DNA of 64,000 bases from Octopus vulgaris. Taxonomy: Eukaryota. A program made the translations under genes and the position numbers. The notes beneath the pieces are model-generated. The model saw only the letters and a list, made by a program, of their open reading frames with translations, did no database searches and had not been told where the DNA came from. The stretch covers positions 223,696,001 to 223,760,000 of the forward strand of contig OX597814.1 of assembly GCA_951406725.2 (NCBI GenBank), read 5' to 3'. This document shows positions 1-52,540 of this stretch, in pieces (positions within the stretch are counted from its first letter, which is position 1; every line of letters begins with the position of its first letter).

Positions 1-232
1 GGGTACCAAACAGCAACCAGACCGTTGCAAATTTGCTCCCCCGAGAAATAAATTTTATAGTTGGCAGGTAGTCCCCCAACTCTTTCTCTATAGTATTCTT
101 GTCGAAGAGGGCAATGGCTCCACGCGACCTAGAATAGGTTCGTAGGACCACCGTCCTCTTCTCAAGACTTTCAATCCACTGCTTTGGTGGGACGACCTCC
201 CATTCCAAAGCGGTGGTTTCTTTTGTTGCCAT
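1..232 (-). CDS. L1/Tx1-type ORF1 (RRM-like + CCHC knuckle), N-terminal part, unit 0
   Basis: ATG at 232-230 (MATKETT...). This copy has 5 C at 38-42, which keeps the frame through ISRGSKFATVWLLFG. Runs off the window edge. Confidence 0.75.
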   Translation of the reverse strand, partial: MATKETTALEWEVVPPKQWIESLEKRTVVLRTYSRSRGAIALFDKNTIEKELGDYLPTIKFISRGSKFATVWLLFGT

Positions 233-982
233 GTTTTTTTTTTTGTTTTTTTTAAATAAATGTATTTAGAATAAAACTAAAAAACGAGAAGAAAAGGAAA
301 TCCGAAGAATGTCACAATGAAAAACGGAGAGAGTCAAATAAAGTTGAAAAGAAAGTCAAATAAAGTTAAAAAGAAAGTCAAAAACACAGCAAAATCCTTT
401 TGGCCATTTGGTACTCCCGGCCTAAATCGAACCAGGATCGCACAACTTCCACAAAAATTGGTGTAAAATTGGTAGTTCTTCACAGCACCATACAATTTTC
501 ACAATTCGAAGACGGATACGCCCCCCAAAATTTTCTCAGCGAGAAAATATATCTGCCACATGTCGGCAGAATCAGAATTCTGAATCCAGTAGGACTTCCT
601 GCATGTAAAAAATAATTCTCAACAAAAACTCCCACTGGACCCAGAAAACAGAATCTTACCTTACATGGGGCTTCCAAAGTTTCAATTCAAGACGGCTTCA
701 AAAGCACATCTTCACTGCTTCAGTAGCAAACACAACACTGACTCGCACATGCGCAGTTAGCAAGCTACTTTATTTTAAATAATTTGCCACTAGGGCAGCA
801 CACAGAGTAGTAGCTACGGGCTGGACAAGGACATTAATGGATGATGGTGGTGGTTGATGAAGATGGTGATGGGAGAAGTCGAAAGCGCCCGCCGACTTTT
901 GCTTCTCTAAAACAATGTTTCAATAAATACATTTAATAAACAATGATTCAAATTGCATAAAAATGTTCAACAATTCTTCTCG

Positions 983-2227
983 TCAGGTCCCCGAAGCAAA
1001 TTGTCTTGCCGCCTGCAGACAACTCTGCGACGACAAGTCGGGGCCTGCAAAGAGAAGGTAAAGTCTTTCTTTTCAAAGGTCTCTGCGACCCTTGACAAAG
1101 TATCTTCTGTTACTTTCTCCGCAGCTACCTGCGGAGGCCATAACGGACTCCTTGAGCCGACCGTGTCCTTACGCTCTCGGTCACCCAAGCCAGTCAAGAA
1201 TCTTTCAACCTTCTCTCCCTTGTGGTAAAGGAGGAGAAGCATCTCCTCTTCACAGGGAGGGACCTCACACTCCTCCGTCGGTGGCACACTTCCCACTGGC
1301 GGAGCCTTGTCCGCGGGTGGCACACATCCCACCCGCGGCTCCGTCGGCGACACAGAAACGTCAGTCGTCCGACCTCTCCTTTTCTCCTCCTTCTTTTGGG
1401 GGAGACTGCTGACCCAGGGGACTCCGTCACCAGACACGGGGGATTGCTATCCCCCTTCGCCCCCTGAGCGTTCTTTGGCGGGCAACCATTGTTGCTCGCC
1501 TTTCTCTTTCTTTTCGTGGAGGCAACCTCCTCCACGACTTCCATCGTCTCCCCCTCCAATGAGGGGGCGGCGGGCGCCTTTTCCCCTCTCTGCTCCGGGG
1601 CACCACTACGGCCCCTGGGACAATTCTTCCTGATATGTCCGGGCTTCAGGCACAGGTGACACTTGGGGGGGCGACCCTCGAGTATCACCGGGTACCTGTG
1701 CCCAGCCATTCTCAGGAAGTCCGGGAATTTCATTTGCCCCACGGCTACCGGTGTCCACAGGGTCAAGGTTGCCCTCGACCCCTGCCAGGCGACCGCGGGA
1801 GCCACCTTCACACTTAGCAGTCTGGGTCCGCTATCCCCCAGGCCTCGCCGGATGGTCTTTTCGATCCATTCCGCCTCCGTGCCCGGGGGCAGCCCACACA
1901 CCCAGGCTCTTTTCACTTTTCTGCCACAATACGAGGGGAGGAACAAAATTTCCTCTCCCTCCAGTGGCTCGCTAGCAAATCTGCTAGCTTCCTCGGGGGT
2001 ACCAAACAGCAACCAGACCGTTGCAAATTTGCTCCCCGAGAAATAAATTTTATAGTTGGCAGGTAGTCCCCCAACTCTTTCTCTATAGTATTCTTGTCGA
2101 AGAGGGCAATGGCTCCACGCGACCTAGAATAGGTTCGTAGGACCACCGTCCTCTTCTCAAGACTTTCAATCCACTGCTTTGGTGGGACGACCTCCCATTC
2201 CAAAGCGGTGGTTTCTTTTGTTGACAT
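983..2227 (-). CDS. L1/Tx1-type ORF1 gag-like protein, unit 1 (split by homopolymer indels)
   Basis: ORF pieces 1913..2227, 1194..2012 and 967..1437 join into one protein with motif ILEGRPPK-CHLCLKPGHIRKNC (CX2CX4HX4C) and VCGLPPGTEAEWIEKTI (RRM-like). Start variant MSTKETT. Confidence 0.8.
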
Positions 2228-2984
2228 AAGTTTTTTTTTTGTTTTTTTTTTTTTTAAATAAATGTATTTAGAATAAAACTAAAAAACGAGAAGAAAAGGG
2301 AAATCCGAAGAATGTCACAATGAAAAACGGAGAGAGTCAAATAAAGTTGAAAAGAAAGTCAAATAAAGTTAAAAAGAAAGTCAAAAACACAGCAAAATCC
2401 TTTTGGCCATTTGGTACTCCCGGCCTAAATCGAACCAGGATCGCACAGCTTCCACAAAAATTGGTGTAAAATTGGTAGTTCTTCACAGCACCATACAATT
2501 TTCACAATTCGAAGACGGATACGCCCCCAAAATTTTCTCAGCGAGAAAATATATCTGCCACATGTCGGCAGAATCAGAATTCTGAATCCAGTAGGACTTC
2601 CTGCATGTAAAAATTAATTCTCAACAAAAACTCCCACTGGACCCAGAAAACAGAATCTTACCTTACATGGGGCTTCCAAAGTTTCAATTCAAGACGGCTT
2701 CAAAAGCACATCTTCACTGCTTCAGTAGCAAACACAACACTGACTCGCACATGCGCAGTTAGCAAGCTACTTTATTTTAAATAATTTGCCACTAGGGCAG
2801 CACACAGAGTAGTAGCTACGGGCTGGACAAGGACATTAATGGATGATGGTGGTGGTTGATGAAGATGGTGATGGGAGAAGTCGAAAGCGCCCGCCGACTT
2901 TTGCTTCTCTAAAACAATGTTTCAATAAATACATTTAATAAACAATGATTCAAATTGCATAAAAATGTTCAACAATTCTTCTCG

Positions 2985-4231
2985 TCAGGTCCCCGAAGCA
3001 AATTGTCTTGCCGCCTGCAGACAACTCTGCGACGACAAGTCGGGGCCTGCAAAGAGAAAGGTAAAGTCTTTCTTTTCAAAGGTCTCTGCGACCCTTGACA
3101 AAGTATCTTCTGTTACTTTCTCCGCAGCTACCTGCGGAGGCCATAACGGACTCCTTGAGCCGACCGTGTCCTTACGCTCTCGGTCACCCAAGCCAGTCAA
3201 GAATCTTTCAACCTTCTCTCCCTTGTGGTAAAGGAGGAGAAGCATCTCCTCTTCACAGGGAGGGACCTCACACTCCTCCGTCGGTGGCACACTTCCCACT
3301 GGCGGAGCCTTGTCCGCGGGTGGCACACATCCCACCCGCGGCTCCGTCGGCGACACAGAAACGTCAGTCGTCCGACCTCTCCTTTTTCTCCTCCTTCTTT
3401 TGGGGGAGACTGCTGACCCAGGGGACTCCGTCACCAGACACGGGGGATTGCTATCCCCCTTCGCCCCCTGAGCGTTCTTTGGCGGGCAACCATTGTTGCT
3501 CGCCTTTCTCTTTCTTTTCGTGGAGGCAACCTCCTCCACGACTTCCATCGTCTCCCCCTCCAATGAGGGGGCGGCGGGCGCCTTTTCCCCCTCTTTGCTC
3601 CGGGGCACCACTACGGCCCCTGGGACAATTCTTCCTGATATGTCCGGGCTTCAGGCACAGGTGACACTTGGGGGGGCGACCCTCGAGTATCACCGGGTAC
3701 CTGTGCCCAGCCATTCTCAGGAAGTCCGGGAATTTCATTTCCCCACGGCTATCGGTGTCCACAGGGTCAAGGTTGCCCTCGACCCCTGCCAGGCGACCGC
3801 AGGAGCCACCTTCACACTTAGCAGTCTGGGTCCGCTATCCCCCAGGCCTCGCCGGATGGTCTTTTCGATCCATTCCGCCTCCGTGCCCGGGGGCAGCCCA
3901 CACACCCAGGCTCTTTTCACTTTTCTGCCACAATACGAGGGGAGGAACAAAATTTCCTCTCCCTCCAGTGGCTCGCTAGCAAATCTGCTAGCTTCCTCGG
4001 GGGTACCAAATAGCAACCAGACCGTTGCAAATTTGCTCCCCGAGAAATAAATTTTATAGTTGGCAGGTAGTCCCCCAACTCTTTCTCTATAGTATTCTTG
4101 TCGAAGAGGGCAATGGCTCCACGCGACCTAGAATAGGTTCGTAGGACCACCGTCCTCTTCTCAAGACTTTCAATCCACTGCTTTGGTGGGACGACCTCCC
4201 ATTCCAAAGCGGTGGTTTCTTTTGTTGCCAT
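2985..4231 (-). CDS. L1/Tx1-type ORF1, unit 2 (frameshifted)
   Basis: Same protein in four ORF pieces; indels fall in C/G runs; stop at 2985-2987. Confidence 0.8.
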
Positions 4232-4983
4232 GTTTTTTTTTGTTTTTTTTTTTTTAAATAAATGTATTTAGAATAAAACTAAAAAACGAGAAGAAAAGGA
4301 AATCCGAAGAATGTCACAATGAAAAACGGAGAGAGTCAAATAAAGTTGAAAAGAAAGTCAAATAAAGTTAAAAAGAAAGTCAAAAACACAGCAAAATCCT
4401 TTTGGCCATTTGGTACTCCCGGCCTAAATCGAACCAGGATCGCACAGCTTCCACAAAAATTGGTGTAAAATTGGTAGTTCTTCACAGCACCATACAATTT
4501 TCACAATTCGAAGACGGATACGCCCCCAAAATTTTCTCAGCGAGAAAATATATCTGCCACATGTCGGCAGAATCAGAATTCTGAATCCAGTAGGACTTCC
4601 TGCATGTAAAAATTAATTCTCAACAAAAACTCCCACTGGACCCAGAAAACAGAATCTTACCTTACATGGGGCTTCCAAAGTTTCAATTCAAGACGGCTTC
4701 AAAAGCACATCTTCACTGCTTCAGTAGCAAACACAACACTGACTCGCACATGCGCAGTTAGCAAGCTACTTTATTTTAAATAATTTGCCACTAGGGCAGC
4801 ACACAGAGTAGTAGCTACGGGCTGGACAAGGACATTAATGGATGATGGTGGTGGTTGATGAAGATGGTGATGGGAGAAGTCGAAAGCGCCCGCCGACTTT
4901 TGCTTCTCTAAAACAATGTTTCAATAAATACATTTAATAAACAATGATTCAAATTGCATAAAAATGTTCAACAATTCTTCTCG

Positions 4984-6231
4984 TCAGGTCCCCGAAGCAA
5001 ATTGTCTTGCCGCCTGCAGACAACTCTGCGACGACAAGTCGGGGCCTGCAAAGAGAAAGGTAAAGTCTTTCTTTTCAAAGGTCTCTGCGACCCTTGACAA
5101 AGTATCTTTCTGTTACTTTCTCCGCAGCTACCTGCGGAGGCCATAACGGACTCCTTGAGCCGACCGTGTCCTTACGCTCTCGGTCACCCAAGCCAGTCAA
5201 GAATCTTTCAACCTTCTCTCCCTTGTGGTAAAGGAGGAGAAGCATCTCCTCTTCACAGGGAGGGACCTCACACTCCTCCGTCGGTGGCACACTTCCCACT
5301 GGCGGAGCCTTGTCCGCGGGTGGCACACATCCCACCCGCGGCTCCGTCGGCGACACAGAAACGTCAGTCGTCCGACCTCTCCTTTTTCTCCTCCTTCTTT
5401 TGGGGGAGACTGCTGACCCAGGGGACTCCGTCACCAGACACGGGGGATTGCTATCCCCCTTCGCCCCCTGAGCGTTCTTTGGCGGGCAACCATTGTTGCT
5501 CGCCTTTCTCTTTCTTTTCGTGGAGGCAACCTCCTCCACGACTTCCATCGTCTCCCCCTCCAATGAGGGGGCGGCGGGCGCCTTTTCCCCTCTTTGCTCC
5601 GGGGCACCACTACGGCCCCTGGGACAATTCTTCCTGATATGTCCGGGCTTCAGGCACAGGTGACACTTGGGGGGGCGACCCTCGAGTATCACCGGGTACC
5701 TGTGCCCAGCCATTCTCAGGAAGTCCGGGAATTTCATTTCCCCCACGGCTATCGGTGTCCACAGGGTCACGGTTGCCCTCGACCCCTGCCAGGCGACCGC
5801 AGGAGCCACCTTCACACTTAGCAGTCTGGGTCCGCTATCCCCCAGGCCTCGCCGGATGGTCTTTTCGATCCATTCCGCCTCCGTGCCCGGGGGCAGCCCA
5901 CACACCCAGGCTCTTTTCACTTTTCTGCCACAATACGAGGGGAGGAACAAAATTTCCTCTCCCTCCAGTGGCTCGCTAGCAAATCTGCTAGCTTCCTCGG
6001 GGGTACCAAATAGCAACCAGACCGTTGCAAATTTGCTCCCCGAGAAATAAATTTTATAGTTGGCAGGTAGTCCCCCAACTCTTTCTCTATAGTATTCTTG
6101 TCGAAGAGGGCAATGGCTCCACGCGACCTAGAATAGGTTCGTAGGACCACCGTCCTCTTCTCAAGACTTTCAATCCACTGCTTTGGTGGGACGACCTCCC
6201 ATTCCAAAGCGGTGGTTTCTTTTGTTGCCAT
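4984..6231 (-). CDS. L1/Tx1-type ORF1, unit 3 (frameshifted)
   Basis: Longest open piece 5075..6016 (313 aa) includes the zinc knuckle and basic KRRRRKRR tract. Total span 1248 nt = 415 aa + stop after correcting one -1 and one +1 indel. Confidence 0.8.
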
Positions 6232-6984
6232 GTTTTTTTTTTTTTTTTTTTTTTTAAATAAATGTATTTAGAATAAAACTAAAAAACGAGAAGAAAAGGA
6301 AATCCGAAGAATGTCACAATGAAAAACGGAGAGAGTCAAATAAAGTTGAAAAGAAAGTCAAATAAAGTTAAAAAGAAAGTCAAAAACACAGCAAAATCCT
6401 TTTGGCCATTTGGTACTCCCGGCCTAAATCGAACCAGGATCGCACAGCTTCCACAAAAATTGGTGTAAAATTGGTAGTTCTTCACAGCACCATACAATTT
6501 TCACAATTCGAAGACGGATACGCCCCCCAAAATTTTCTCAGCGAGAAAATATATCTGCCACATGTCGGCAGAATCAGAATTCTGAATCCAGTAGGACTTC
6601 CTGCATGTAAAAATTAATTCTCAACAAAAACTCCCACTGGACCCAGAAAACAGAATCTTACCTTACATGGGGCTTCCAAAGTTTCAATTCAAGACGGCTT
6701 CAAAAGCACATCTTCACTGCTTCAGTAGCAAACACAACACTGACTCGCACATGCGCAGTTAGCAAGCTACTTTATTTTAAATAATTTGCCACTAGGGCAG
6801 TACACAGAGTAGTAGCTACGGGCTGGACAAGGACATTAATGGATGATGGTGGTGGTTGATGAAGATGGTGATGGGAGAAGTCGAAAGCGCCCGCCGACTT
6901 TTGCTTCTCTAAAACAATGTTTCAATAAATACATTTAATAAACAATGATTCAAATTGCATAAAAATGTTCAATAATTCTTCTCG

Positions 6985-8229
6985 TCAGGTCCCCGAAGCA
7001 AATTGTCTTGCCGCCTGCAGACAACTCTGCGACGACAAGTCGGGGCCTGCAAAGAGAAAGGTAAAGTCTTTCTTTTCAAAGGTCTCTGCGACCCTTGACA
7101 AAGTATCTTCTGTTACTTTCTCCGCAGCTACCTGCGGAGGCCATAACGGACTCCTTGAGCCGACCGTGTCCTTACGCTCTCGGTCACCCAAGCCAGTCAA
7201 GAATCTTTCAACCTTCTCTCCCTTGTGGTAAAGGAGGAGAAGCATCTCCTCTTCACAGGGAGGGACCTCACACTCCTCCGTCGGTGGCACACTTCCCACT
7301 GGCGGAGCCTTGTCCGCGGGTGGCACACATCCCACCCGCGGCTCCGTCGGCGACACAGAAACGTCAGTCGTCCGACCTCTCCTTTTTCTCCTCCTTCTTT
7401 TGGGGGAGACTGCTGACCCAGGGGACTCCGTCACCAGACACGGGGGATTGCTATCCCCCTTCGCCCCCTGAGCGTTCTTTGGCGGGCAACCATTGTTGCT
7501 CGCCTTTCTCTTCTTTTCGTGGAGGCAACCTCCTCCACGACTTCCATCGTCTCCCCCTCCAATGAGGGGGCGGCGGGCGCCTTTTCCCCTCTCTGCTCCG
7601 GGGCACCACTACGGCCCCTGGGACAATTCTTCCTGATATGTCCGGGCTTCAGGCACAGGTGACACTTGGGGGGGCGACCCTCGAGTATCACCGGGTACCT
7701 GTGCCCAGCCATTCTCAGGAAGTCCGGGAATTTCATTTGCCCCACGGCTACCGGTGTCCACAGGGTCAAGGTTGCCCTCGACCCCTGCCAGGCGACCGCG
7801 GGAGCCACCTTCACACTTAGCAGTCTGGGTCCGCTATCCCCCAGGCCTCGCCGGATGGTCTTTTCGATCCATTCCGCCTCCGTGCCCGGGGCAGCCCACA
7901 CACCCAGGCTCTTTTCACTTTTCTGCCACAATACGAGGGGAGGAACAAAATTTCCTCTCCCTCCAGTGGCTCGCTAGCAAATCTGCTAGCTTCCTCGGGG
8001 GTACCAAACAGCAACCAGACCGTTGCAAATTTGCTCCCCGAGAAATAAATTTTATAGTTGGCAGGTAGTCCCCCAACTCTTTCTCTATAGTATTCTTGTC
8101 GAAGAGGGCAATGGCTCCACGCGACCTAGAATAGGTTCGTAGGACCACCGTCCTCTTCTCAAGACTTTCAATCCACTGCTTTGGTGGGACGACCTCCCAT
8201 TCCAAAGCGGTGGTTTCTTTTGTTGCCAT
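6985..8229 (-). CDS. L1/Tx1-type ORF1, unit 4 (frameshifted)
   Basis: ORF pieces 7915..8229, 7817..8014, 7431..7931 and 6985..7434. Confidence 0.8.
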
Positions 8230-8980
8230 GTTTTTTTTTGTTTTTTTTTAAATAAATGTATTTAGAATAAAACTAAAAAACGAGAAGAAAAGGAAATCCG
8301 AAGAATGTCACAATGAAAAACGGAGAGAGTCAAATAAAGTTGAAAAGAAAGTCAAATAAAGTTAAAAAGAAAGTCAAAAACACAGCAAAATCCTTTTGGC
8401 CATTTGGTACTCCCGGCCTAAATCGAACCAGGATCGCACAACTTCCACATAAATTGGTGTAAAATTGGTAGTTCTTCACAGCACCATACAATTTTCACAA
8501 TTCGAAGACGGATACGCCCCCCCAAAATTTTCTCAGCGAGAAAAATATATCTGCCACATGTCGGCAGAATCAGAATTCTGAATCCAGTAGGACTTCCTGC
8601 ATGTAAAAAATAATTCTCAACAAAAACTCCCACTGGACACAGAAAACAGAATCTTACCTTACATGGGGCTTCCAAAGTTTCAATTCAAGACGGCTTCAAA
8701 AGCACATCTTCACTGCTTCAGTAGCAAACACAACACTGACTCGCACATGCGCAGTTAGCAAGCTACTTTATTTTAAATAATTTGCCACTAGGGCAGTACA
8801 CAGAGTAGTAGCTACGGGCTGGACAAGGACATTAATGGATGATGGTGGTGGTTGATGAAGATGGTGATGGGAGAAGTCGAAAGCGCCCGCCGACTTTTGC
8901 TTCTCTAAAACAATGTTTCAATAAATACATTTAATAAACAATGATTCAAATTGCATAAAAATGTTCAACAATTCTTCTCG

Positions 8981-10225
8981 TCAGGTCCCCGAAGCAAATT
9001 GTCTTGCCGCCTGCAGACAACTCTGCGACGACAAGTCGGGGCCTGCAAAGAGAAAGGTAAAGTCTTTCTTTTCAAAGGTCTCTGCGACCCTTGACAAAGT
9101 ATCTTCTGTTACTTTCTCCGCAGCTACCTGCGGAGGCCATAACGGACTCCTTGAGCCGACCGTGTCCTTACGCTCTCGGTCACCCAAGCCAGTCAAGAAT
9201 CTTTCAACCTTCTCTCCCTTGTGGTAAAGGAGGAGAAGCATCTCCTCTTCACAGGGAGGGACCTCACACTCCTCCGTCGGTGGCACACTTCCCACTGGCG
9301 GAGCCTTGTCCGCGGGTGGCACACATCCCACCCGCGGCTCCGTCGGCGACACAGAAACGTCAGTCGTCCGACCTCTTCTTTTCTCCTCCTTCTTTTGGGG
9401 GAGACTGCTGACCCAGGGGACTCTGTCACCAGACACGGGGGATTGCTATCCCCCTTCGCCCCCTGAGCGTTCTTTGGCGGGCAACCATTGTTGCTCGCCT
9501 TTCTCTTTCTTTTCGTGGAGGCAACCTCCTCCACGACTTCCATCGTCTCCCCCTCCAATGAGGGGGCGGCGGGCGCCTTTTCCCCTATCTGCTCCGGGGC
9601 ACCACTACGGCCCCTGGGACAATTCTTCCTGATATGTCCGGGCTTCAGGCACAGGTGACACTTGGGGGGGCGACCCTCGAGTATCACCGGGTACCTGTGC
9701 CCAGCCATTCTCAGGAAGTCCGGGAATTTCATTTGCCCCACGGCTACCGGTGTCCACAGGGTCAAGGTTGCCCTCGACCCCTGCCAGGCGACCGCGGGAG
9801 CCACCTTCACACTTAGCAGTCTGGGTCCGCTATCCCCCAGGCCTCGCCGGATGGTCTTTTCGATCCATTCCGCCTCCGTGCCCGGGGGCAGCCCACACAC
9901 CCAGGCTCTTTTCACTTTTCTGCCACAATACGAGGGGAGGAACAAAATTTCCTCTCCCTCCAGTGGCTCGCTAGCAAATCTGCTAGCTTCCTCGGGGTAC
10001 CAAATAGCAACCAGACCGTTGCAAATTTGCTCCCCGAGAAATAAATTTTATAGTTGGCAGGTAGTCCCCCAACTCTTTCTCTATAGTATTCTTGTCGAAG
10101 AGGGCAATGGCTCCACGCGACCTAGAATAGGTTCGTAGGACCACCGTCCTCTTCTCAAGACTTTCAATCCACTGCTTTGGTGGGACGACCTCCCATTCCA
10201 AAGCGGTGGTTTCTTTTGTTGCCAT
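8981..10225 (-). CDS. L1/Tx1-type ORF1, unit 5 (frameshifted)
   Basis: ORF pieces 9983..10225, 9193..9945 and 8981..9436. Confidence 0.8.
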
Positions 10226-10973
10226 GTTTTTTTTGTTTTTTTTTAAATAAATGTATTTAGAATAAAACTAAAAAACGAGAAGAAAAGGAAATCCGAAGAA
10301 TGTCACAATGAAAAACGGAGAGAGTCAAATAAAGTTGAAAAGAAAGTCAAATAAAGTTAAAAAGAAAGTCAAAAACACAGCAAAATCCTTTTGGCCATTT
10401 GGTACTCCCGGCCTAAATCGAACCAGGGTCGCACAACTTCCACATAAATTGGTGTAAAATTGGTAGTTCTTCACAGCACCATACAATTTTCACAATTCGA
10501 AGACGGATACGCCCCCCAAATTTTCTCAGCGAGAAAAATATATCTGCCACATGTCGGCAGAATCAGAATTCTGAATCCAGTAGGACTTCCTGCATGTAAA
10601 AAATAATTCTCAACAAAAACTCCCACTGGACACAGAAAACAGAATCTTACCTTACATGGGGCTTCCAAAGTTTCAATTCAAGACGGCTTCAAAAGCACAT
10701 CTTCACTGCTTCAGTAGCAAACACAACACTGACTCGCACATGCGCAGTTAGCAAGCTACTTTATTTTAAATAATTTGCCACTAGGGCAGTACACAGAGTA
10801 GTAGCTACGGGCTGGACAAGGACATTAATGGATGATGGTGGTGGTTGATGAAGATGGTGATGGGAGAAGTCGAAAGCGCCCGCCGACTTTTGCTTCTCTA
10901 AAACAATGTTTCAATAAATACATTTAATAAACAATGATTCAAATTGCATAAAAATGTTCAACAATTCTTCTCG

Positions 10974-12219
10974 TCAGGTCCCCGAAGCAAATTGTCTTGC
11001 CGCCTGCAGACAACTCTGCGACGACAAGTCGGGGCCTGCAAAGAGAAAGGTAAAGTCTTTCTTTTCAAAGGTCTCTGCGACCCTTGACAAAGTATCTTCT
11101 GTTACTTTCTCCGCAGCTACCTGCGGAGGCCATAACGGACTCCTTGAGCCGACCGTGTCCTTACGCTCTCGGTCACCCAAGCCAGTCAAGAATCTTTCAA
11201 CCTTCTCTCCCTTGTGGTAAAGGAGGAGAAGCATCTCCTCTTCACAGGGAGGGACCTCACACTCCTCCGTCGGTGGCACACTTCCCACTGGCGGAGCCTT
11301 GTCCGCGGGTGGCACACATCCCACCCGCGGCTCCGTCGGCGACACAGAAACGTCAGTCGTCCGACCTCTTCTTTTCTCCTCCTTCTTTTGGGGGAGACTG
11401 CTGACCCAGGGGACTCTGTCACCAGACACGGGGGATTGCTATCCCCCTTCGCCCCCTGAGCGTTCTTTGGCGGGCAACCATTGTTGCTCGCCTTTCTCTT
11501 TCTTTTCGTGGAGGCAACCTCCTCCACGACTTCCATCGTCTCCCCCTCCAATGAGGGGGCGGCGGGCGCCTTTTCCCCTATCTGCTCCGGGGCACCACTA
11601 CGGCCCCTGGGACAATTCTTCCTGATATGTCCGGGCTTCAGGCACAGGTGACACTTGGGGGGGCGACCCTCGAGTATCACCGGGTACCTGTGCCCAGCCA
11701 TTCTCAGGAAGTCCGGGAATTTCATTTGCCCCACGGCTACCGGTGTCCACAGGGTCAAGGTTGCCCTCGACCCCTGCCAGGCGACCGCGGGAGCCACCTT
11801 CACACTTAGCAGTCTGGGTCCGCTATCCCCCAGGCCTCGCCGGATGGTCTTTTCGATCCATTCCGCCTCCGTGCCCGGGGGCAGCCCACACACCCAGGCT
11901 CTTTTCACTTTTCTGCCACAATACGAGGGGAGGAACAAAATTTCCTCTCCCTCCAGTGGCTCGCTAGCAAATCTGCTAGCTTCCTCGGGGGTACCAAATA
12001 GCAACCAGACCGTTGCAAATTTGCTCCCCGAGAAATAAATTTTATAGTTGGCAGGTAGTCCCCCAACTCTTTCTCTATAGTATTCTTGTCGAAGAGGGCA
12101 ATGGCTCCACGCGACCTAGAATAGGTTCGTAGGACCACCGTCCTCTTCTCAAGACTTTCAATCCACTGCTTTGGTGGGACGACCTCCCATTCCAAAGCGG
12201 TGGTTTCTTTTGTTGCCAT
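10974..12219 (-). CDS. L1/Tx1-type ORF1, unit 6 (frameshifted)
   Basis: ORF pieces 11905..12219, 11186..12004 and 10974..11429. Confidence 0.8.
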
Positions 12220-12741
12220 GTTTTTTTTTGTTTTTTTTTAAATAAATGTATTTAGAATAAAACTAAAAAACGAGAAGAAAAGGAAATCCGAAGAATGTCA
12301 CAATGAAAAACGGAGAGAGTCAAATAAAGTTGAAAAGAAAGTCAAATAAAGTTAAAAAGAAAGTCAAAAACACAGCAAAATCCTTTTGGCCATTTGGTAC
12401 TCCCGGCCTAAATCGAACCAGGGTCGCACAACTTCCACATAAATTGGTGTAAAATTGGTAGTTCTTCACAGCACCATACAATTTTCACAATTCGAAGACG
12501 GATACGCCCCCCAAATTTTCTCAGCGAGAAAAATATATCTGCCACATGTCGGCAGAATCAGAATTCTGAATCCAGTAGGACTTCCTGCATGTAAAAAATA
12601 ATTCTCAACAAAAACTCCCACTGGACACAGAAAACAGAATCTTACCTTACATGGGGCTTCCAAAGTTTCAATTCAAGACGGCTTCAAAAGCACATCTTCA
12701 CTGCTTCAGTAGCAAACACAACACTGACTCGCACATGCGCA

Positions 12742-12776
12742 GTTAGCAAGCTACTTACCACACAGCCACTCCTGCG
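12742..12776 (-). mobile_element. 5' head (A-box part) of tRNA-derived SINE family A, interrupted by the array
   Basis: Reverse complement cgcaggagtggctgtgtggtaagtagcttgctaac is identical to the start of the full SINE at 52134-52168. Confidence 0.92.
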
Positions 12777-16156: not shown

Positions 16157-17035
16157 CAGGAAGTTCGCACTAAATTTGACGGATTTTTATGTCTTCTTTC
16201 TTCAAGAACAATTTGATGTATTGGTGGACAGTCAATGGAGTTGGTGAGCATAAAGATTAAAGTTGTAGTTGAGAAAAAATTAGCAGACATGGAGGCCTGG
16301 AAGCGATCTGAAGATTAGAAAAGAGTTACTTGTATCATGATGATTCTCGCCGGGTATTAAAATGCCGATATCATAACAACTGCTCAGTGCTCTGTAAACA
16401 CTGTAAAGTCTGTAAGACGTAACAAAGGCAGCTGCAACGGAGACTACGAAGCCGTAACAAGCAGGAAACGACACAGCAGGCATTCTGACTGCGTGCGCAC
16501 GCCAGGGTCCATCCAGCAACAGGGCCTTAGGCTCAGTTTAGATGTCTGCTAAAGACTGTGATCAATCCATGGCTGAAGGAGGTTACTGCTGCAAGGCCAC
16601 ATATGTGACGGCAATATTCGGCTCCTTGACATACGTCCAGAAGGTGTCAGAAGCGGTTATCGGAAATTTTTCTACGACTTCACCGAATTTCTGACCTCCT
16701 AATTCCTCCAATTCTAATCGCATGGATTTCTATGCATGAGGCGCGGTTGAAAAAGATACAAACCGCTCTGTATGCAACACCAAGGCCGAGCTGGTGACCA
16801 AGATCAAGGAGGTGTTTGAAGATTTCCCCAGTGTCACAGGGCAGAACGCATGCGCTAGGTCCAGGAGCAAATTTGAGGGCCGCAGTGGAAGCTGAGGGCC
16901 GTTTCTTTCAGTAAACTTTTATCTCCCAATCATAATTTCGTTGATTTTTATTGTTTAAACATACTTTTACTTTTGGATGACACATAGTGTTTACTTTCTT
17001 TTGTATAAACTGTCAAATTTAGACCGAATACCCTG
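16157..17035 (+). mobile_element. Decayed Tc1/mariner (DD37D/maT-like) DNA transposon
   Basis: Imperfect TIRs caggaagttcgcactaaatttgac / gtcaaatttagaccgaataccctg, both flanked by TA. Internal remnants resemble QQDSAPxH (~16610) and WPPNSPDLNPMD (~16690). Confidence 0.8.
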
Positions 17036-17502: not shown

Positions 17503-19236
17503 GGGCGTATCCGTCTTCGAATTGTGAAAATTGTATGGTGCTGTGAAGAACTACCAATTTTACACCAATTTTTGTGGAAGTTGTGCGATCCTGGTTCGAT
17601 TTAGGCCGGGAGTACCAAATGGCCAAAAGGATTTTGCTGTGTTTTTGACTTTCTTTTTAACTTTATTTGACTTTCTTTTCAACTTTATTTGACTCTCTCC
17701 TTTTTTCATTGTGACTTTCTTCGGATTTCCTTTTCTTCTCGTTTTTTAGTTTTATTCTAAATACATTTATTTAAAAAAAAAAAAAAAAACATGGCAACAA
17801 AAGAAACCACCGCTATGGAATGGGAGGTCGTCCCACCCAAGCAGTGGATTGAAAGTCTTGAGAAGAGGACGGTGGTCCTACGAACCTATTCTAGGTCGCG
17901 TGGAGCCATTGCCCTCTTCGACAGGAATACTATAGAGAAAGAGTTGGGGGAATACCTGCCAACTATAAAATTTATTTCTCGGGGGACTAAATTTGCAATG
18001 GTGTGGTTGCTGTTTGGTACCCCCGAGGAAGCTAGCAGATTTGCTAGCGAGCCACTGGAGGGAGAGGAAATTTTGTTCCTCCCCTCGTATTGTGGCAGAA
18101 AAGTGAAAAGAGCCTGGGTGTGTGGGCTGCCCCCGGGCACGGAGGCGGAATGGATCGAGAAGACCATCCGGCGAGGCCTGGGGGATAGAGGACCCAGACT
18201 GCTGAGTGTGAAGGTGGCTCCCGCGGTCGCCTGGCAGGGGTCGAGGGCAACTTTGACCCTGTGGACACCGGTAGCCGTGGGAGAAATGAAATTCCCGGAC
18301 TTCCTGAGAATGGCTGGGCACAGGTACCCGGTGATACTCGAGGGTCGCCCCCCCCAAGTGTCACCTGTGCCTGAAGCCCGGACATATCAGGAAGAATTGT
18401 CCCAGGGGCCGTGGTGGTGCCCCGGAGCAGAGAGGGGAAAAGGCGCCCGCCGCCCCCTCATTGGAGGGGGAGACGATGGAAGTCGTGGAGGAGGTTGCCT
18501 CCACGAAAAGAAAGAGAAAGGCGAGCAACAATGGTTGCCCGCCAAAGAACGCTCAGGGGGCGAAGGGGGATAGCAATCCCCCGTGTCTGGTGACGGAGTC
18601 CCCTGGGTCACCAGTCTCCCCAAAAGGAGGAGAAAAAGGAGAGGTCGGACGACTGACGTTTCTGTGTCGCCGACGGAGCCGCGGGTGGGATGTGTGCCAC
18701 CCGCGGACAAGGCTCCGCCAGTAGGAAGTGTGCCACCGACGGAGCAGTGTGAGGTCCCTCCCTGTGAAGAGGAGATGCTTCTCCTCGTTTACCACAAGGG
18801 AGAGGAGGTTGAAAGATTCTTGAATGGCTTGGGTGACCGAGAGCGTAAGGGCACGGTCGGCTCAAGGAGTCCGTCATGGCCTCCGCGGGTAGCTGCGGAA
18901 AAAGTAACAGAAGATACTTTGTCATGGGTCGCAGAGACCTTTGAAAAGAAAGACTTTACCTTTCTCTTTGCAGGCCCCGACTTGTCGTCGCAGAGTTGTC
19001 TGCAGGCGGCAAGACAATTTGCTTCGGGGACCTGACGAGAAGAATTGTTGAACAATTTTTGAACATTTTATTAAATGTATTTATTGAAACATTGTTTTAG
19101 AGAAGCGAAAGTCGGCGGGCGCTTTCGACTTCTCCCATCACCATCTTCATCCACCACCACCATCATCCATTAATGTCCTTGTCCAGCCCGTAGCTACTAC
19201 TCTGTGTGCTGCCCTAGTGGCAAATTATATAAAATA
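17503..19236 (+). mobile_element. Solitary, inverted, 5'-truncated copy of the array element
   Basis: Collinear with the reverse complement of an array unit, lacking ~245 bp of the 5' end. Ends ...ggcaaattatataaaataaa followed by the SINE motif variant aagtagcttggttacc (19237-19252). Confidence 0.95.
17791..19035 (+). CDS. L1/Tx1-type ORF1, solitary copy (+1 and -1 homopolymer indels, one 3-nt deletion)
   Basis: ORFs 17791..18573, 18461..18724 and 18583..19035. The N-terminal ~190 codons are open (G5 run intact). Confidence 0.8.
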
Positions 19237-19252
19237 AAGTAGCTTGGTTACC

Positions 19253-19912
19253 TAAGTTGCTGACTTCCGTTTAACATACTTCCTGTTTGTGTCTTCAGCT
19301 GTTCAGAAGCGCATTTTTTGTTCTGTGGATTACCTGTTTTCTATGTGGAGTACCTGTCTAAACTGTCTCTTCTATTCAGATTATTATTTGTGAATTTTTT
19401 CTGACGCCTCCCAGAGCGGGAAGGTAAGAAACATTTTTTTGAAAATTTCTGTGCAAAAAAAAACTGAACTTTATTAAGCCGTTGTAGGCTTTTTGTTGCG
19501 CCCCGCCCCCAAGTGGGGAAGGGATTGGAACTACCATCTTTTGTTAGGCTTAGTGGAAGCTATATTACGTTTTTTCTTAACATTTTCTGAACTATTATTA
19601 TAGGCTCCCACTTTTGTGGGGGTAATACATTTGTTTTTTGTTGTGTGAACGAATTATTGTTGAACCGATGTAAAGCTTTACACCGAACCCCACCCCCAGT
19701 GGGGGTAGGACTTGAAACATTATCCTCCCTAGAAGGAAAAACTCTGTCTTGTTTCTGACTTTGTTAATTTCGGCCGTGTATGTTGGTCGAAATTATCAGA
19801 AATGTACCCTCGAAGAGGGAGGTGTCAGTGCTAGCAATGGTGCCACCACTGCTAACAAGTTTGTGGCTGTTTCAGCCGTTGCAAAAGATACAATTAATAT
19901 TCCCCTAGAATA
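19253..19912 (+). mobile_element. Unidentified element 5' region lying at the same SINE target motif (putative sibling family)
   Basis: Starts immediately after the SINE motif. Contains ETS-like acttccg/acttcctg, an AAG|GTAAGA donor-like site (~19423) and four C-run/G-run hairpins. Followed by the SINE 3' half. Confidence 0.5.
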
Positions 19913-19919
19913 CTTATAT

Positions 19920-20146
19920 ATGTATGTGTGTGTGTATATGTTTGTGTCTGTGTTTATCCCCCCAACATCGCTTGACAACCGATGCAGGTGCGTTTACGTC
20001 CCTGTAACTTAGCGGTTCGGCATAAGAGACCTATAGAATAAGTACTAGGCTAACAAAGAATAAGTGTCGGGGTCGAATTGTTCGACTAAAGGTGGTACTC
20101 CAGCATGGCCGCAGTCAAATGACAGAAACAAGTAAAAGTCAAAGAA
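19920..20146 (+). mobile_element. SINE family A, 3' half
   Basis: cgcttgacaaccgatg...cagcatggccgcagtcaaatgacagaaacaagtaaaag matches 52330-52535. Confidence 0.9.
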
Positions 20147-45329: not shown

Positions 45330-46900
45330 TTTTAGCATAAATCATCCACAAATATATTATGGGTTACTTTAATATCTCTTGCACTTGCAGACCCTAGCAT
45401 GTAGTCGTATGTTTTTTGTAGTAGGAATGATAATGGATTTAACGCCAAAATTAACAGAAGTACAGAGAGACTATCTCTCTGGAATATTCCCTTTGAAATA
45501 TTTATGGCATTGGAGACGATCGTTCCACTCTCTGTTGTAAGTGTGAGGAGTGTGGTCCAGGTCTTTGTGACCCTCTCAATGACAGCAATTCAGGTAGCAA
45601 GCACTTGAAGACACTTCAGCAGACATGAATGAGGAGTAGAGTCAAATGCCTTCGTATAATTAAACCATACTGTTGTAAGGCTCCTGCGATGGCTTTTTCC
45701 TATTTTGCTTTGTTCTTTTACCTCAGACTATACAGCCTTGTCAGAAATTGCTCAGATCATCCTCACACTTTCTTCTTTCCACCGGCTGCTCATCTGTCAA
45801 TATGCTGTTGGACTTACAATGATCTTAGAGGAATTGGTTGAAGCAGCCTGTGTACAGTCTATACATATTTAGGCAAGCAATAGGCCGTAGTTCTCAAGCA
45901 CTTCGGTGGTTTTATTCTTGGCCACGATTTTGGTATGTCAAACTGACTTTCCATAGTAATTTTGAATATAGTTATTAAGGGTTTCCTGTAAAATGTTAGC
46001 CTCTTATACCAGTATCCAACTATTAAGTCCCTTCCAGGTGCCTTCCCATTATGCAGTTTGCCTACAGCTATGGTAAAAAATATCCTGGTCACTTGCATAT
46101 GTTTTACTGTTGATGTTGGTACAGTATTCTCTCTTTACTTCATTTAGCTACGATACATTGAGGTTGAGATTTTTTTCTTTCCAGAATGATTTAAGACCTT
46201 CTTAAGAGGGGGCTTTCTTAACGGTAATATTATCCTTCTTTATCTCTCTACATAATGTTTGTGTGTTAGAAAAAAATTGTGTGATTTATACAGACTCAAC
46301 TCATCAAAAAATTCGTTTGCGGAATCGAAGATTTTCGCTCTGAGCTCTGAGTTCATGTTTAGAGTTATCAACTTCCCATCAAGAGCTTGTTGTGAAGGGT
46401 TACCATACAGTTTTGCTAATTTGTTTCTAAGATGTGACTGATGAGGTGTAAACTCACTGTTATTATATTTATTACCATTGTTATCCGTCCAAAATGGCGG
46501 AGTAGATTGTTGATGTTTTCTTCAAGTTTTGTTTGTTTTCCATTTAGGATGTTTTGGTTTAGTACTTTCATTACTATGTATACTGCATATTTTTCCCAGG
46601 TGTTCTTTAAGAGTTATAGCAGCTGTGTATATGAGAGTATTCATACTCCAGTAATTAACATTACATGATTCCATGTGCTCTCCAGCGATATCGTCGATAA
46701 CATTCAATATTATAGCTGTTGGATTTTCTCTTAATCTTAAAAATAGCCTGTTACTTAACGATAGTTTTGAAAAGGTAGAAAAGTTTTCTATGAAGTGTGG
46801 AGAGACACGAGTATTTAGTGATGGTGGCGGCGTGTATACATTATTTTCGATCTTACTTTGGCAGGTTTTAACCATTTCTCAGTGTTTCGCATCGCGAGAG
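45330..46900 (-). pseudogene. Decayed R4/Dong-like reverse transcriptase ORF
   Basis: Minus-strand remnants in order: YWSMNTLIYTAA, KLHNGKAPGRDLIVGYWYK, WFNYTKAFDSTPH, and HNIFVDDL (catalytic FxDD). Confidence 0.75.
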
Positions 46901-52131: not shown

Positions 52132-52540
52132 GGCGCAGGAGTGGCTGTGTGGTAAGTAGCTTGCTAACCAACCACATGGTTCCGGGTTCAGTCCCACTAC
52201 GTGGCACCTTGGGCAAGTGTCTTCTGCTATAGCCCCGGGCCGACCAATGCCTTGTGAGTGGATTTGGTTGACGGAAACTGAAAGAAGCCTGTCGTATATA
52301 TGTATATGTGTATGTGTGTGTATGTGTTTGTGTGTCTGTGTTTGTCTCCCTAGCATTGCTTGACAACCGATGCTGGTGTGTCTACGTCCCCGTCACTTAG
52401 CGGTTCGGCAAAAGAGACCGATAGAATAAGTACTGGGCTTACAAAGAATAAGTCCCGGGGTCGATTTGCTCGACTAAAAGGTGGTGCTCCAGCATGGCCG
52501 CAGACAAATCACTGAAACAAGTAAAAGAGTAAAAGAGAGA
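52132..52540 (+). mobile_element. SINE family A, full length (uninterrupted copy of the array's target)
   Basis: A-box tggctgtgtgg, B-box ggttcagtccc, internal (TG)n, 3' tail gtaaaagagtaaaagag. Confidence 0.95.

Follow-up and report, generated by a model that had tools for sequence, protein, structure and literature searches.

How does a retroelement that encodes no reverse transcriptase (RT) come to stand in seven consecutive copies inside one short interspersed element (SINE)? The question is raised by 64,000 nucleotides of Octopus vulgaris DNA (GCA_951406725.2, contig OX597814.1, positions 223,696,001 to 223,760,000 of the forward strand), which we call the window and whose first base is G000:C1:223696001 in our numbering. 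The repeated element, here named family A, lies at the left end of the window (Table 1). The 15-mer AAGTAGCTTGCTAAC was found exactly seven times on the minus strand, about 2.0 kb apart between 756 and 12742, and again in an intact SINE at 52154. With up to two mismatches there were 11 matches in the window, against 0.11 expected by chance. The units consist of a 5' untranslated region (UTR) of about 540 nt, a single open reading frame (ORF1) and a 3' UTR of about 210 nt, and the six whole units were 98.8-100% identical to unit 1.

The original prediction, made from the letters alone, had described ORF1-only units of about 2 kb separated by identical 15-mers. The seven exact 15-mers and the reading frames confirm this, and no RT or endonuclease frame and no ORF2 remnant was found in family A units by frame analysis and domain scan. 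At the right edge the SINE head CGCAGGAGTGGCTGTGTGGT (12776-12757) continues into the first 15-mer just as in the intact SINE at 52134, as had also been predicted. The 3' UTR had been said to end in AATAAA. The motif is present, but the element itself ends in ...AAATA and the final two A come from the target.

A single SINE target and a putative Tx1-like partner

All families share one insertion point in the SINE, GTGTGGT^AAGTAGCTT, and the priming cut was placed between GTGTGGT and AAGTAGC. A 33-nt pattern of the host SINE gave 71,412 exact matches, a lower bound for empty sites, and the window holds seven SINE copies or pieces besides the split head (the intact one at 52132..52330 and six others). 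No tRNA was found in the host SINE by ARAGORN or Rfam, and its head folds no better than shuffled sequences. The box-like TGGCTGTGTGG and GGTTCAGTCCC, which we take to resemble the A and B box consensus, flank the insertion site.

Specificity was counted with queries that ended before the 15-mer. The target came next at 57 of 58 exact family A 3' ends (one was unclear) and was itself followed by the SINE remainder in 12, by another A in 17 and by another family in 28; 23 A loci are known only near their 3' ends. For an RT-bearing family, family B, the 15-mer came next at all 30 ends (26 then the SINE remainder, 4 then another element), which exceeds the criterion for target preference of more than 20% of flanks (PMC4494074). 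Genome-wide, GAAATA followed by the target start occurred 1337 times, against 79 for a control; the first 30 of these matches comprised 28 that ran into the SINE, one that ran into another element and one chance match. These A and B ends uphold the predicted site-specific insertion into the SINE. Random dispersal of copies is ruled out by them, and the idea that the 15-mer is an invariant internal part of the element is ruled out as well, because its downstream copy varies with the SINE. Other ORF1-only families use the same target, and clustering of 71 units gave 32 of family A, 21 of family B (plus one split by a gap in the joined sequence), two more ORF1-only families with four each and several singletons.

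The SINE remainder that had been expected at the far end of the array was found beyond the left edge of the window. Read leftward, the order is SINE head, seven family A units, 15-mer, family B, AAGTAGCTTGTTAAC and SINE remainder. The family B element here measures 5454 bp (G000:C1:223694757-223689319, minus strand). The family encodes ORF1 and an ORF2 with APE (PF03372), RT (PF00078) and zf-RVT (PF13966) domains, all above cut-offs. This far-end copy has a stop in ORF1, and its ORF2 is about 70 codons too short. One family B copy with both frames open was found, and the ORF2 catalytic motifs are present in a B copy with an open 1133-aa frame. Among 150 scored RT matches, 61 were 96-100% identical over the whole query, several of them in frames of 1133-1150 codons. 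In phmmer searches the B ORF2 scored 315 bits to a full-length protein from fish that is annotated as transposon TX1 149 kDa, 234-284 bits to two partial TX1 proteins and 311-339 bits to three close fish relatives, compared with 229 bits to human L1 ORF2p; a close ORF2 relative comes from Argonauta. The higher score to the TX1 protein than to human L1 ORF2p suggests, together with the ORF2 domains, that family B is Tx1-like.

At the DNA level families A and B resemble each other only in the 15-mer and the last 30-35 nt. The motif in common is a TGCC-N5-GGCA hairpin followed by AAATA, with TAAAATA in A and TGAAATA in the other families. Of 18 ends, most retain the hairpin, and two of four pairs show compensatory changes. 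A Tx1-like partner with the same target had been predicted, and by common target and terminal motif family B is a candidate for it, but a 3' similarity of some 150 nt, also expected, shrank to about 35 nt. Sister RT families at 79% and 72% were considered as alternative partners and rejected, as they use other targets.

ORF1 of units 1-6 is frameshifted in homopolymer runs, and an open frame of 415 aa was found in unit 7 and in two copies on other contigs. A base absent from unit 1 at 11371 is present at full depth in short-read contigs of all four public runs, and one absent at 12025 is present in all four at part or full depth. Some of the unit 1 frameshifts are therefore probably assembly errors or private to these copies. 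The zinc knuckle after ILEGRPPK reads C-x2-C-x4-H-x4-C, and seven of seven aligned ORF1 proteins matched zf-CCHC (E up to 0.1), with no match to Transposase_22. In a structure model of the A protein, residues 11-200 form two confidently modelled domains (pLDDT about 70-87), which match tandem RNA-recognition motif (RRM) proteins (best E 1.8e-5). A resemblance to ZCCHC3-like RNA-binding clusters (score 0.90) serves as a lead only. The only relative in a protein search over lengths of 228-727 aa was an Octopus sinensis protein (66%). The domain content fits the Type I ORF1 (RRM and CCHC) described for the Tx1 clade (PMC5203782).

The ORF1 proteins of three ORF1-only families, A, C and G, are 49-70% identical. 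The ratio of nonsynonymous to synonymous substitution (dN/dS) was 0.11-0.23 over residues 1-205, at a dS of 1.3-1.9, and 0.45-0.73 in the tail. ORF1 of the ORF1-only families is thus under purifying selection, and these values make it an old lineage whose protein has been maintained. The G and A tails are nearly unchanged between them (dS 0.13), a mark of recombination between families. Separately, chimeras that swap leaders and bodies were seen at five loci (L049, L050, L036, L143, L165), with a C leader on an A body, an A-like leader on a C-type end or a G leader on a C-type end; in this set one leader is common to a 2.1-kb element and an RT-bearing element.

A hybrid junction and the growth of stacks

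The 15-mer had been taken as a target-site duplication (TSD). This is right for its left part: the 15-mer is a hybrid in which about 9-10 bases come from the target, while the right part, (T)GCTAAC, belongs to the element. We found 36 first insertions and dropped three that were truncated or unclear (L121, L137, L142). In 29 of the 33 remaining full-length cases the first 9 bases were equal on both sides. By contrast, where the right part of the target was variant, it was copied identically upstream in only one of 21, which rejects a faithful 15-bp TSD for full-length copies. Upstream of B and C the sequence is always TAAC, even on GCTTAC, GTTTAC and GATTAC targets, and there are intermediates such as AAGTAGCTTGT-CTAAC. 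A form with an extra T, TTTG, was present in 7 of 33 upstream junctions and in none of their targets. Genome-wide there are 45 cases of the SINE head followed by TTTG; 30 were read, and 28 of them continue into an element. The near-full-length copy L121 keeps 10 target bases; in truncated copies, the joints recovered from short reads preserve 10, 9 or fewer. The junctions are most simply read as a second cut 9-10 bases further along, joined to an element that starts with (T)GCTAAC. As a separate observation, three 5'-truncated autonomous copies (L122, L137, L138) join the SINE head without duplication or with a small target deletion.

The order and kinship of units tell how the stacks grow. 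Unit 3 and a copy on G000:C4 differ in 0 of 1233 columns, and units 4-5 are closer to a unit on C10 than to their neighbours. In three arrays (C1, C5 and C10) the older subfamilies lie 3'. The TTTG form is bound to the locus: TTTG was present upstream of 15 of 18 units that stand on a TTTG junction, compared with 2 of 24 on TTG (p 9e-7). At C5 an original TTG target lies below seven junctions that all read TTTG, and closely related A types stand on TTG in the window and on TTTG at C5 and C10. Mixed unit sources, older units 3' and a locus-bound variant together fit best with sequential insertion beside the SINE head, and the junction test and subfamily order support the sequential re-use of the site that had been proposed. 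Growth at the 3' side is disfavoured by the TTTG runs on TTG targets and by the subfamily order. At L037/L036 (G000:C10:101.17-101.19 Mb) stands a nine-unit stack of four families that includes a 977-bp internally deleted A unit with both ends.

Regeneration of the target permits stacking, as the original prediction held, but does not explain how often it occurs. Exact used sites number 778 against at least 71,412 exact empty ones, or about 1% used, and yet 33 of 35 full-length A copies (those with the full A leader) lie directly upstream of another element. Among 41 A runs, 28 end on another family, with a binomial p of about 1e-45 at 1.1% used and about 3e-27 even at 5%. Of the 30 family B ends, 4 are stacked, and for family C some three quarters of the ends (roughly 162 of 212, with patterns that are not strictly nested) lie directly in the SINE. 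For A-type ends, two full-length and ten others do so in an empty SINE. Regeneration alone is therefore insufficient; there must be a strong preference for used sites rather than empty ones, and it must be strongest in A.

Proposed mechanism and competing explanations

We propose, with a probability of roughly 0.6, that family A is an ORF1-only non-autonomous non-LTR (long terminal repeat) element that borrows the endonuclease and RT of a Tx1-like partner and stacks by sequential insertion, with used sites favoured. Family B or a close sister would nick the bottom strand at the insertion point and begin reverse transcription at the terminal hairpin, and the top strand would be cut about 9-10 bases on. 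The cDNA end, complementary to (T)GCTAAC, would then join by an overlap of 0-2 bases to give TTG or TTTG. The standard target would be rebuilt directly behind the SINE head, and later copies would insert singly at the rebuilt site, pushing older units 3'. Within this proposal the likeliest cause of the preference would be that the 5' promoter of a young resident copy holds the rebuilt site open; several leaders start with GCGCATG-like or ACTTCCG words, candidates by resemblance for NRF1 and ETS sites.

Several points weigh against the proposal. Trans-mobilisation and both cut sites are deduced from sequence. The ORF1 proteins of A and B are 29% identical (alignment E 2e-22), and B is named as the putative partner by target and terminal motif alone. 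One 5'-truncated B copy (L076) has a 16-base duplication, so the second cut is not fixed. When only pairs of different families are counted, the TTTG test is weaker, with 4 of 7 on TTTG and 2 of 16 on TTG (p 0.045). Near-identical neighbours (units 1-2, 4-5 and 6-7 and an XYXY order at C5) suit local duplication equally well. Across 10 pairs, the age of an A copy correlates with that of the element downstream of it (rho 0.80), as would also be expected from a single-event model; the downstream partner was more diverged in 8 of the 10 pairs, from different regions compared and with incomplete sampling. Open chromatin should draw B and C equally, yet A differs, and steering by the ORF1 or leader of A, or capture by template jumping, may instead cause its preference.

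Template jumping is the strongest competitor, although we consider it a good deal less probable than sequential insertion. Here a stack would arise in one event: once the RT had finished one RNA, the cDNA end would pair with a further RNA through its read-through 3' tail, and A would be a hitch-hiker on cDNA ends, perhaps since its TAAAATA end starts insertion poorly. The correlated ages and the position of 33 of 35 full-length A copies upstream of another element would follow, and since the target completes AATAAA, target bases would be expected at the 3' end of transcripts. Against it, the TTTG variant tracks the locus and not the source subtype, old and young subfamilies are ordered within arrays, and the two full-length and ten other A-type ends stand directly in empty SINEs. 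That the long homogeneous runs grew by unequal crossing-over or local duplication once one or two elements had landed, or are in part mis-assembled, seems somewhat less probable again. Such an origin would readily produce the XYXY order at C5, the 0 substitutions between units 1 and 2 and the single difference in 1233 columns within each of the pairs 4-5 and 6-7, but not the identity of unit 3 with the C4 copy, nor the closeness of units 4-5 to the C10 unit, nor the 28 of 41 A runs that end on another family, which duplication cannot create.

That A and the element downstream were transcribed together by read-through and moved as one composite appears improbable. There is no poly(A) tail between units, and A+B and A+C recur on several contigs, but at least six different downstream partners were found, and three A+C loci carry A copies that are 9-11 substitutions apart, one of them being equal to unit 3 of the window, which is followed by A. 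Least probable is the simple model of the original prediction, in which 15 bp are duplicated faithfully and sites of every kind are chosen at random. The 15-mers are identical throughout the window and one truncated copy has a faithful duplication; in its strict form the model is refuted by the variant targets, copied in 1 of 21, and by the stacking test. Beyond the sequential-insertion proposal, we suggest, tentatively and with less than even confidence, that family A may be an occupied-site specialist whose ORF1 or 5' leader directs the RNA-protein particle towards SINE sites in which a young element already resides, or towards insertions still under way. If true, a protein-coding passenger would discriminate between identical targets according to their past, and the site would be restored each time with bases supplied by the element.

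Features of the window and comparison with known systems

The features of the window are collected in Table 1.

Table 1. Family A units, junctions and host SINE in the window
Feature	Position	Strand	Remark
SINE 5' head before the array	12757..12776	-	Identical to head of intact SINE at 52134
First 15-mer: target-derived AAGTAGCTT(G) and element-carried (T)GCTAAC	12742..12756	-	Recurs at 10747, 8754, 6758, 4757, 2758, 756
Family A unit 1	10762..12741	-	Presumably the newest insertion; 0 substitutions vs unit 2
ORF1 region of unit 1	10974..12219	-	Two RRM-fold domains (predicted), CCHC knuckle, low-complexity tail; homopolymer frameshifts
CX2CX4HX4C zinc knuckle codons, unit 1	11612..11653	-	
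Terminal motif of unit 1: TGCC-N5-GGCA hairpin, then AAATA	10762..10797	-	Common to the putative autonomous partner
Family A unit 2	8769..10746	-	
Family A unit 3	6773..8753	-	Equals G000:C4 copy (76.2 Mb) across 1233 compared columns
Family A unit 4	4772..6757	-	Clusters with unit 5 and one G000:C10 array unit
Family A unit 5	2773..4756	-	
Family A unit 6	771..2757	-	
Family A unit 7, 5' part	1..755	-	ATG at 232; runs on to G000:C1:223694773
Older separate family A copy	17503..19236	+	5'-truncated; 96.6% to unit 1
Variant junction AAGTAGCTTGGTTAC, then non-SINE sequence F	19237..19251	+	F without relative among fetched loci
Intact host SINE	52132..52330	+	Empty target at 52154-52168

No SINE head stands in front of the older family A copy. 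Sequence F (19252-19910) resembles an element leader at its start and has no terminal motif; it is followed at about 19915-20140 by a high-copy repeat that matches DNA beside many SINE remainders and is probably the SINE 3' part. The family A 5' UTR (12214-12375 and equivalents) has an A-rich run directly before the ATG and a 22-bp tandem repeat of 2.5 copies. In the 3' UTR (10845-10900 region per unit) a pair, GTCGGCGGGCG ... CCAGCCCG, is kept in eight A-like families and absent from families B and D. A long-range helix is possible, and no compensatory change was found in this second helix in the A-like families. Unit 1 holds no ribozyme or known RNA at Rfam threshold, and element leaders fold no better than shuffled sequences. 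At 16200-16900 and 46500-46900 there are GC-richer stretches that resemble decayed coding pieces of transposons.

Drosophila HeT-A likewise carries only ORF1/Gag, forms head-to-tail arrays that grow at the 5' side and needs an RT-bearing partner; it differs from the present system in being telomeric, of the Jockey clade and without an endonuclease target or duplication. HAL1 is not known to insert at a fixed target, and the endonuclease of R2 is of a different type. HAL1, which has arisen several times, is non-autonomous, encodes only ORF1p (PMC5753468) and derives from mammalian L1, whereas here ORF1 is of the two-RRM and CCHC type and the element is sequence-specific. Family A has the ORF1-only and ORF1-selected traits of a HAL1-type LINE (long interspersed element), without the Transposase_22 of HAL1 proper. 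In R2, target-like bases on the RNA 5' end are proposed to give uniform 5' junctions by annealing, with use of a ribozyme and 9-36 upstream bases (PMC3774820), unlike unit 1 with its lack of a ribozyme at Rfam threshold.

A close precedent is Tx1-Mar with SINEU-3 in crocodilians, where Tx1 elements and a non-autonomous passenger prefer one site in Mariner-N4_AMi with a 16-bp TSD and tandem copies are attributed to sequential insertion (PMC4494074). As here, a Tx1 element and a passenger meet at one transposon site and tandem copies sandwich the TSD; unlike there, our target is a SINE, the passenger codes for a conserved ORF1 and lacks poly(A), stacks reach 7-9 units of mixed kind and the apparent TSD is partly carried by the element. 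In Drosophila R1 arrays in 28S rDNA, copies are separated by a 14-bp TSD and new copies enter it at the 5' end of the resident; in one species every tandem R1A copy is found upstream of R1B, and for some R1 transcripts it is proposed that target bases carried on them anneal at the 5' junction (PMC2718515). R1 moves autonomously and belongs to a different clade. In the species tabulated there, 8-75% of its target units are already occupied, compared with about 1% here; with so many units taken, R1 stacking needs no strong preference.

Kibi and Keno are described Tx1-clade elements (PMC4494074), and sister autonomous families in this genome (65-67% to the B ORF2) end in (TC)n like Kibi or, in one case, at a U2 small nuclear RNA (snRNA) gene, in contrast to B, which has switched to the SINE. 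The young sister family (ORF2 67% to B; L231, L233-L237, G000:C6:37.28 Mb and others) ends in AATAAA(G/T)AAATAC followed by (TC)n in five of six copies, the sixth being interrupted before its end. A third family (65%; L238:545-601, L232, L239, L240) has AATAAAGAAAATTT followed by [CT]ATCG in four of four copies. Of these, one directly adjoins position 1 of a U2 snRNA gene (Rfam 71.8 bits), another repeated unit hosts two, and one lies in unknown sequence.

Octopus tRNA-derived SINEs go back to Ohshima and Okada 1994 (cited in PMC4758252), and a 2026 repeat annotation of O. vulgaris counts 13 recently active L1-Tx1 families (PMC13282606). The words 'target' and 'nested' do not occur in its main text, and its supplements may hold a consensus. 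Literature searches, with subscription papers and Repbase outside their reach, gave no paper on this family or target sequence, and it is quite possible that an entry already exists. The ingredients each have a precedent in Tx1-Mar/SINEU-3, R1 arrays or HAL1; what appears undescribed is how they combine, together with the hybrid junction and the measured preference of family A for used sites.

We regard as real a young target-specific system in which a Tx1-like LINE and ORF1-only passengers meet at one SINE site. The system offers hundreds of junctions on two questions, the 5' joining of APE-type LINEs and the role of ORF1 without ORF2. Its polymorphic SINE target marks which bases come from DNA and which from RNA, and the occupancy of about 1% makes a preference for used sites measurable, unlike in rDNA arrays. 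With close sister families aimed at the SINE, at (TC)n and near U2, it is suited to the study of target switching in a sequence-specific endonuclease.

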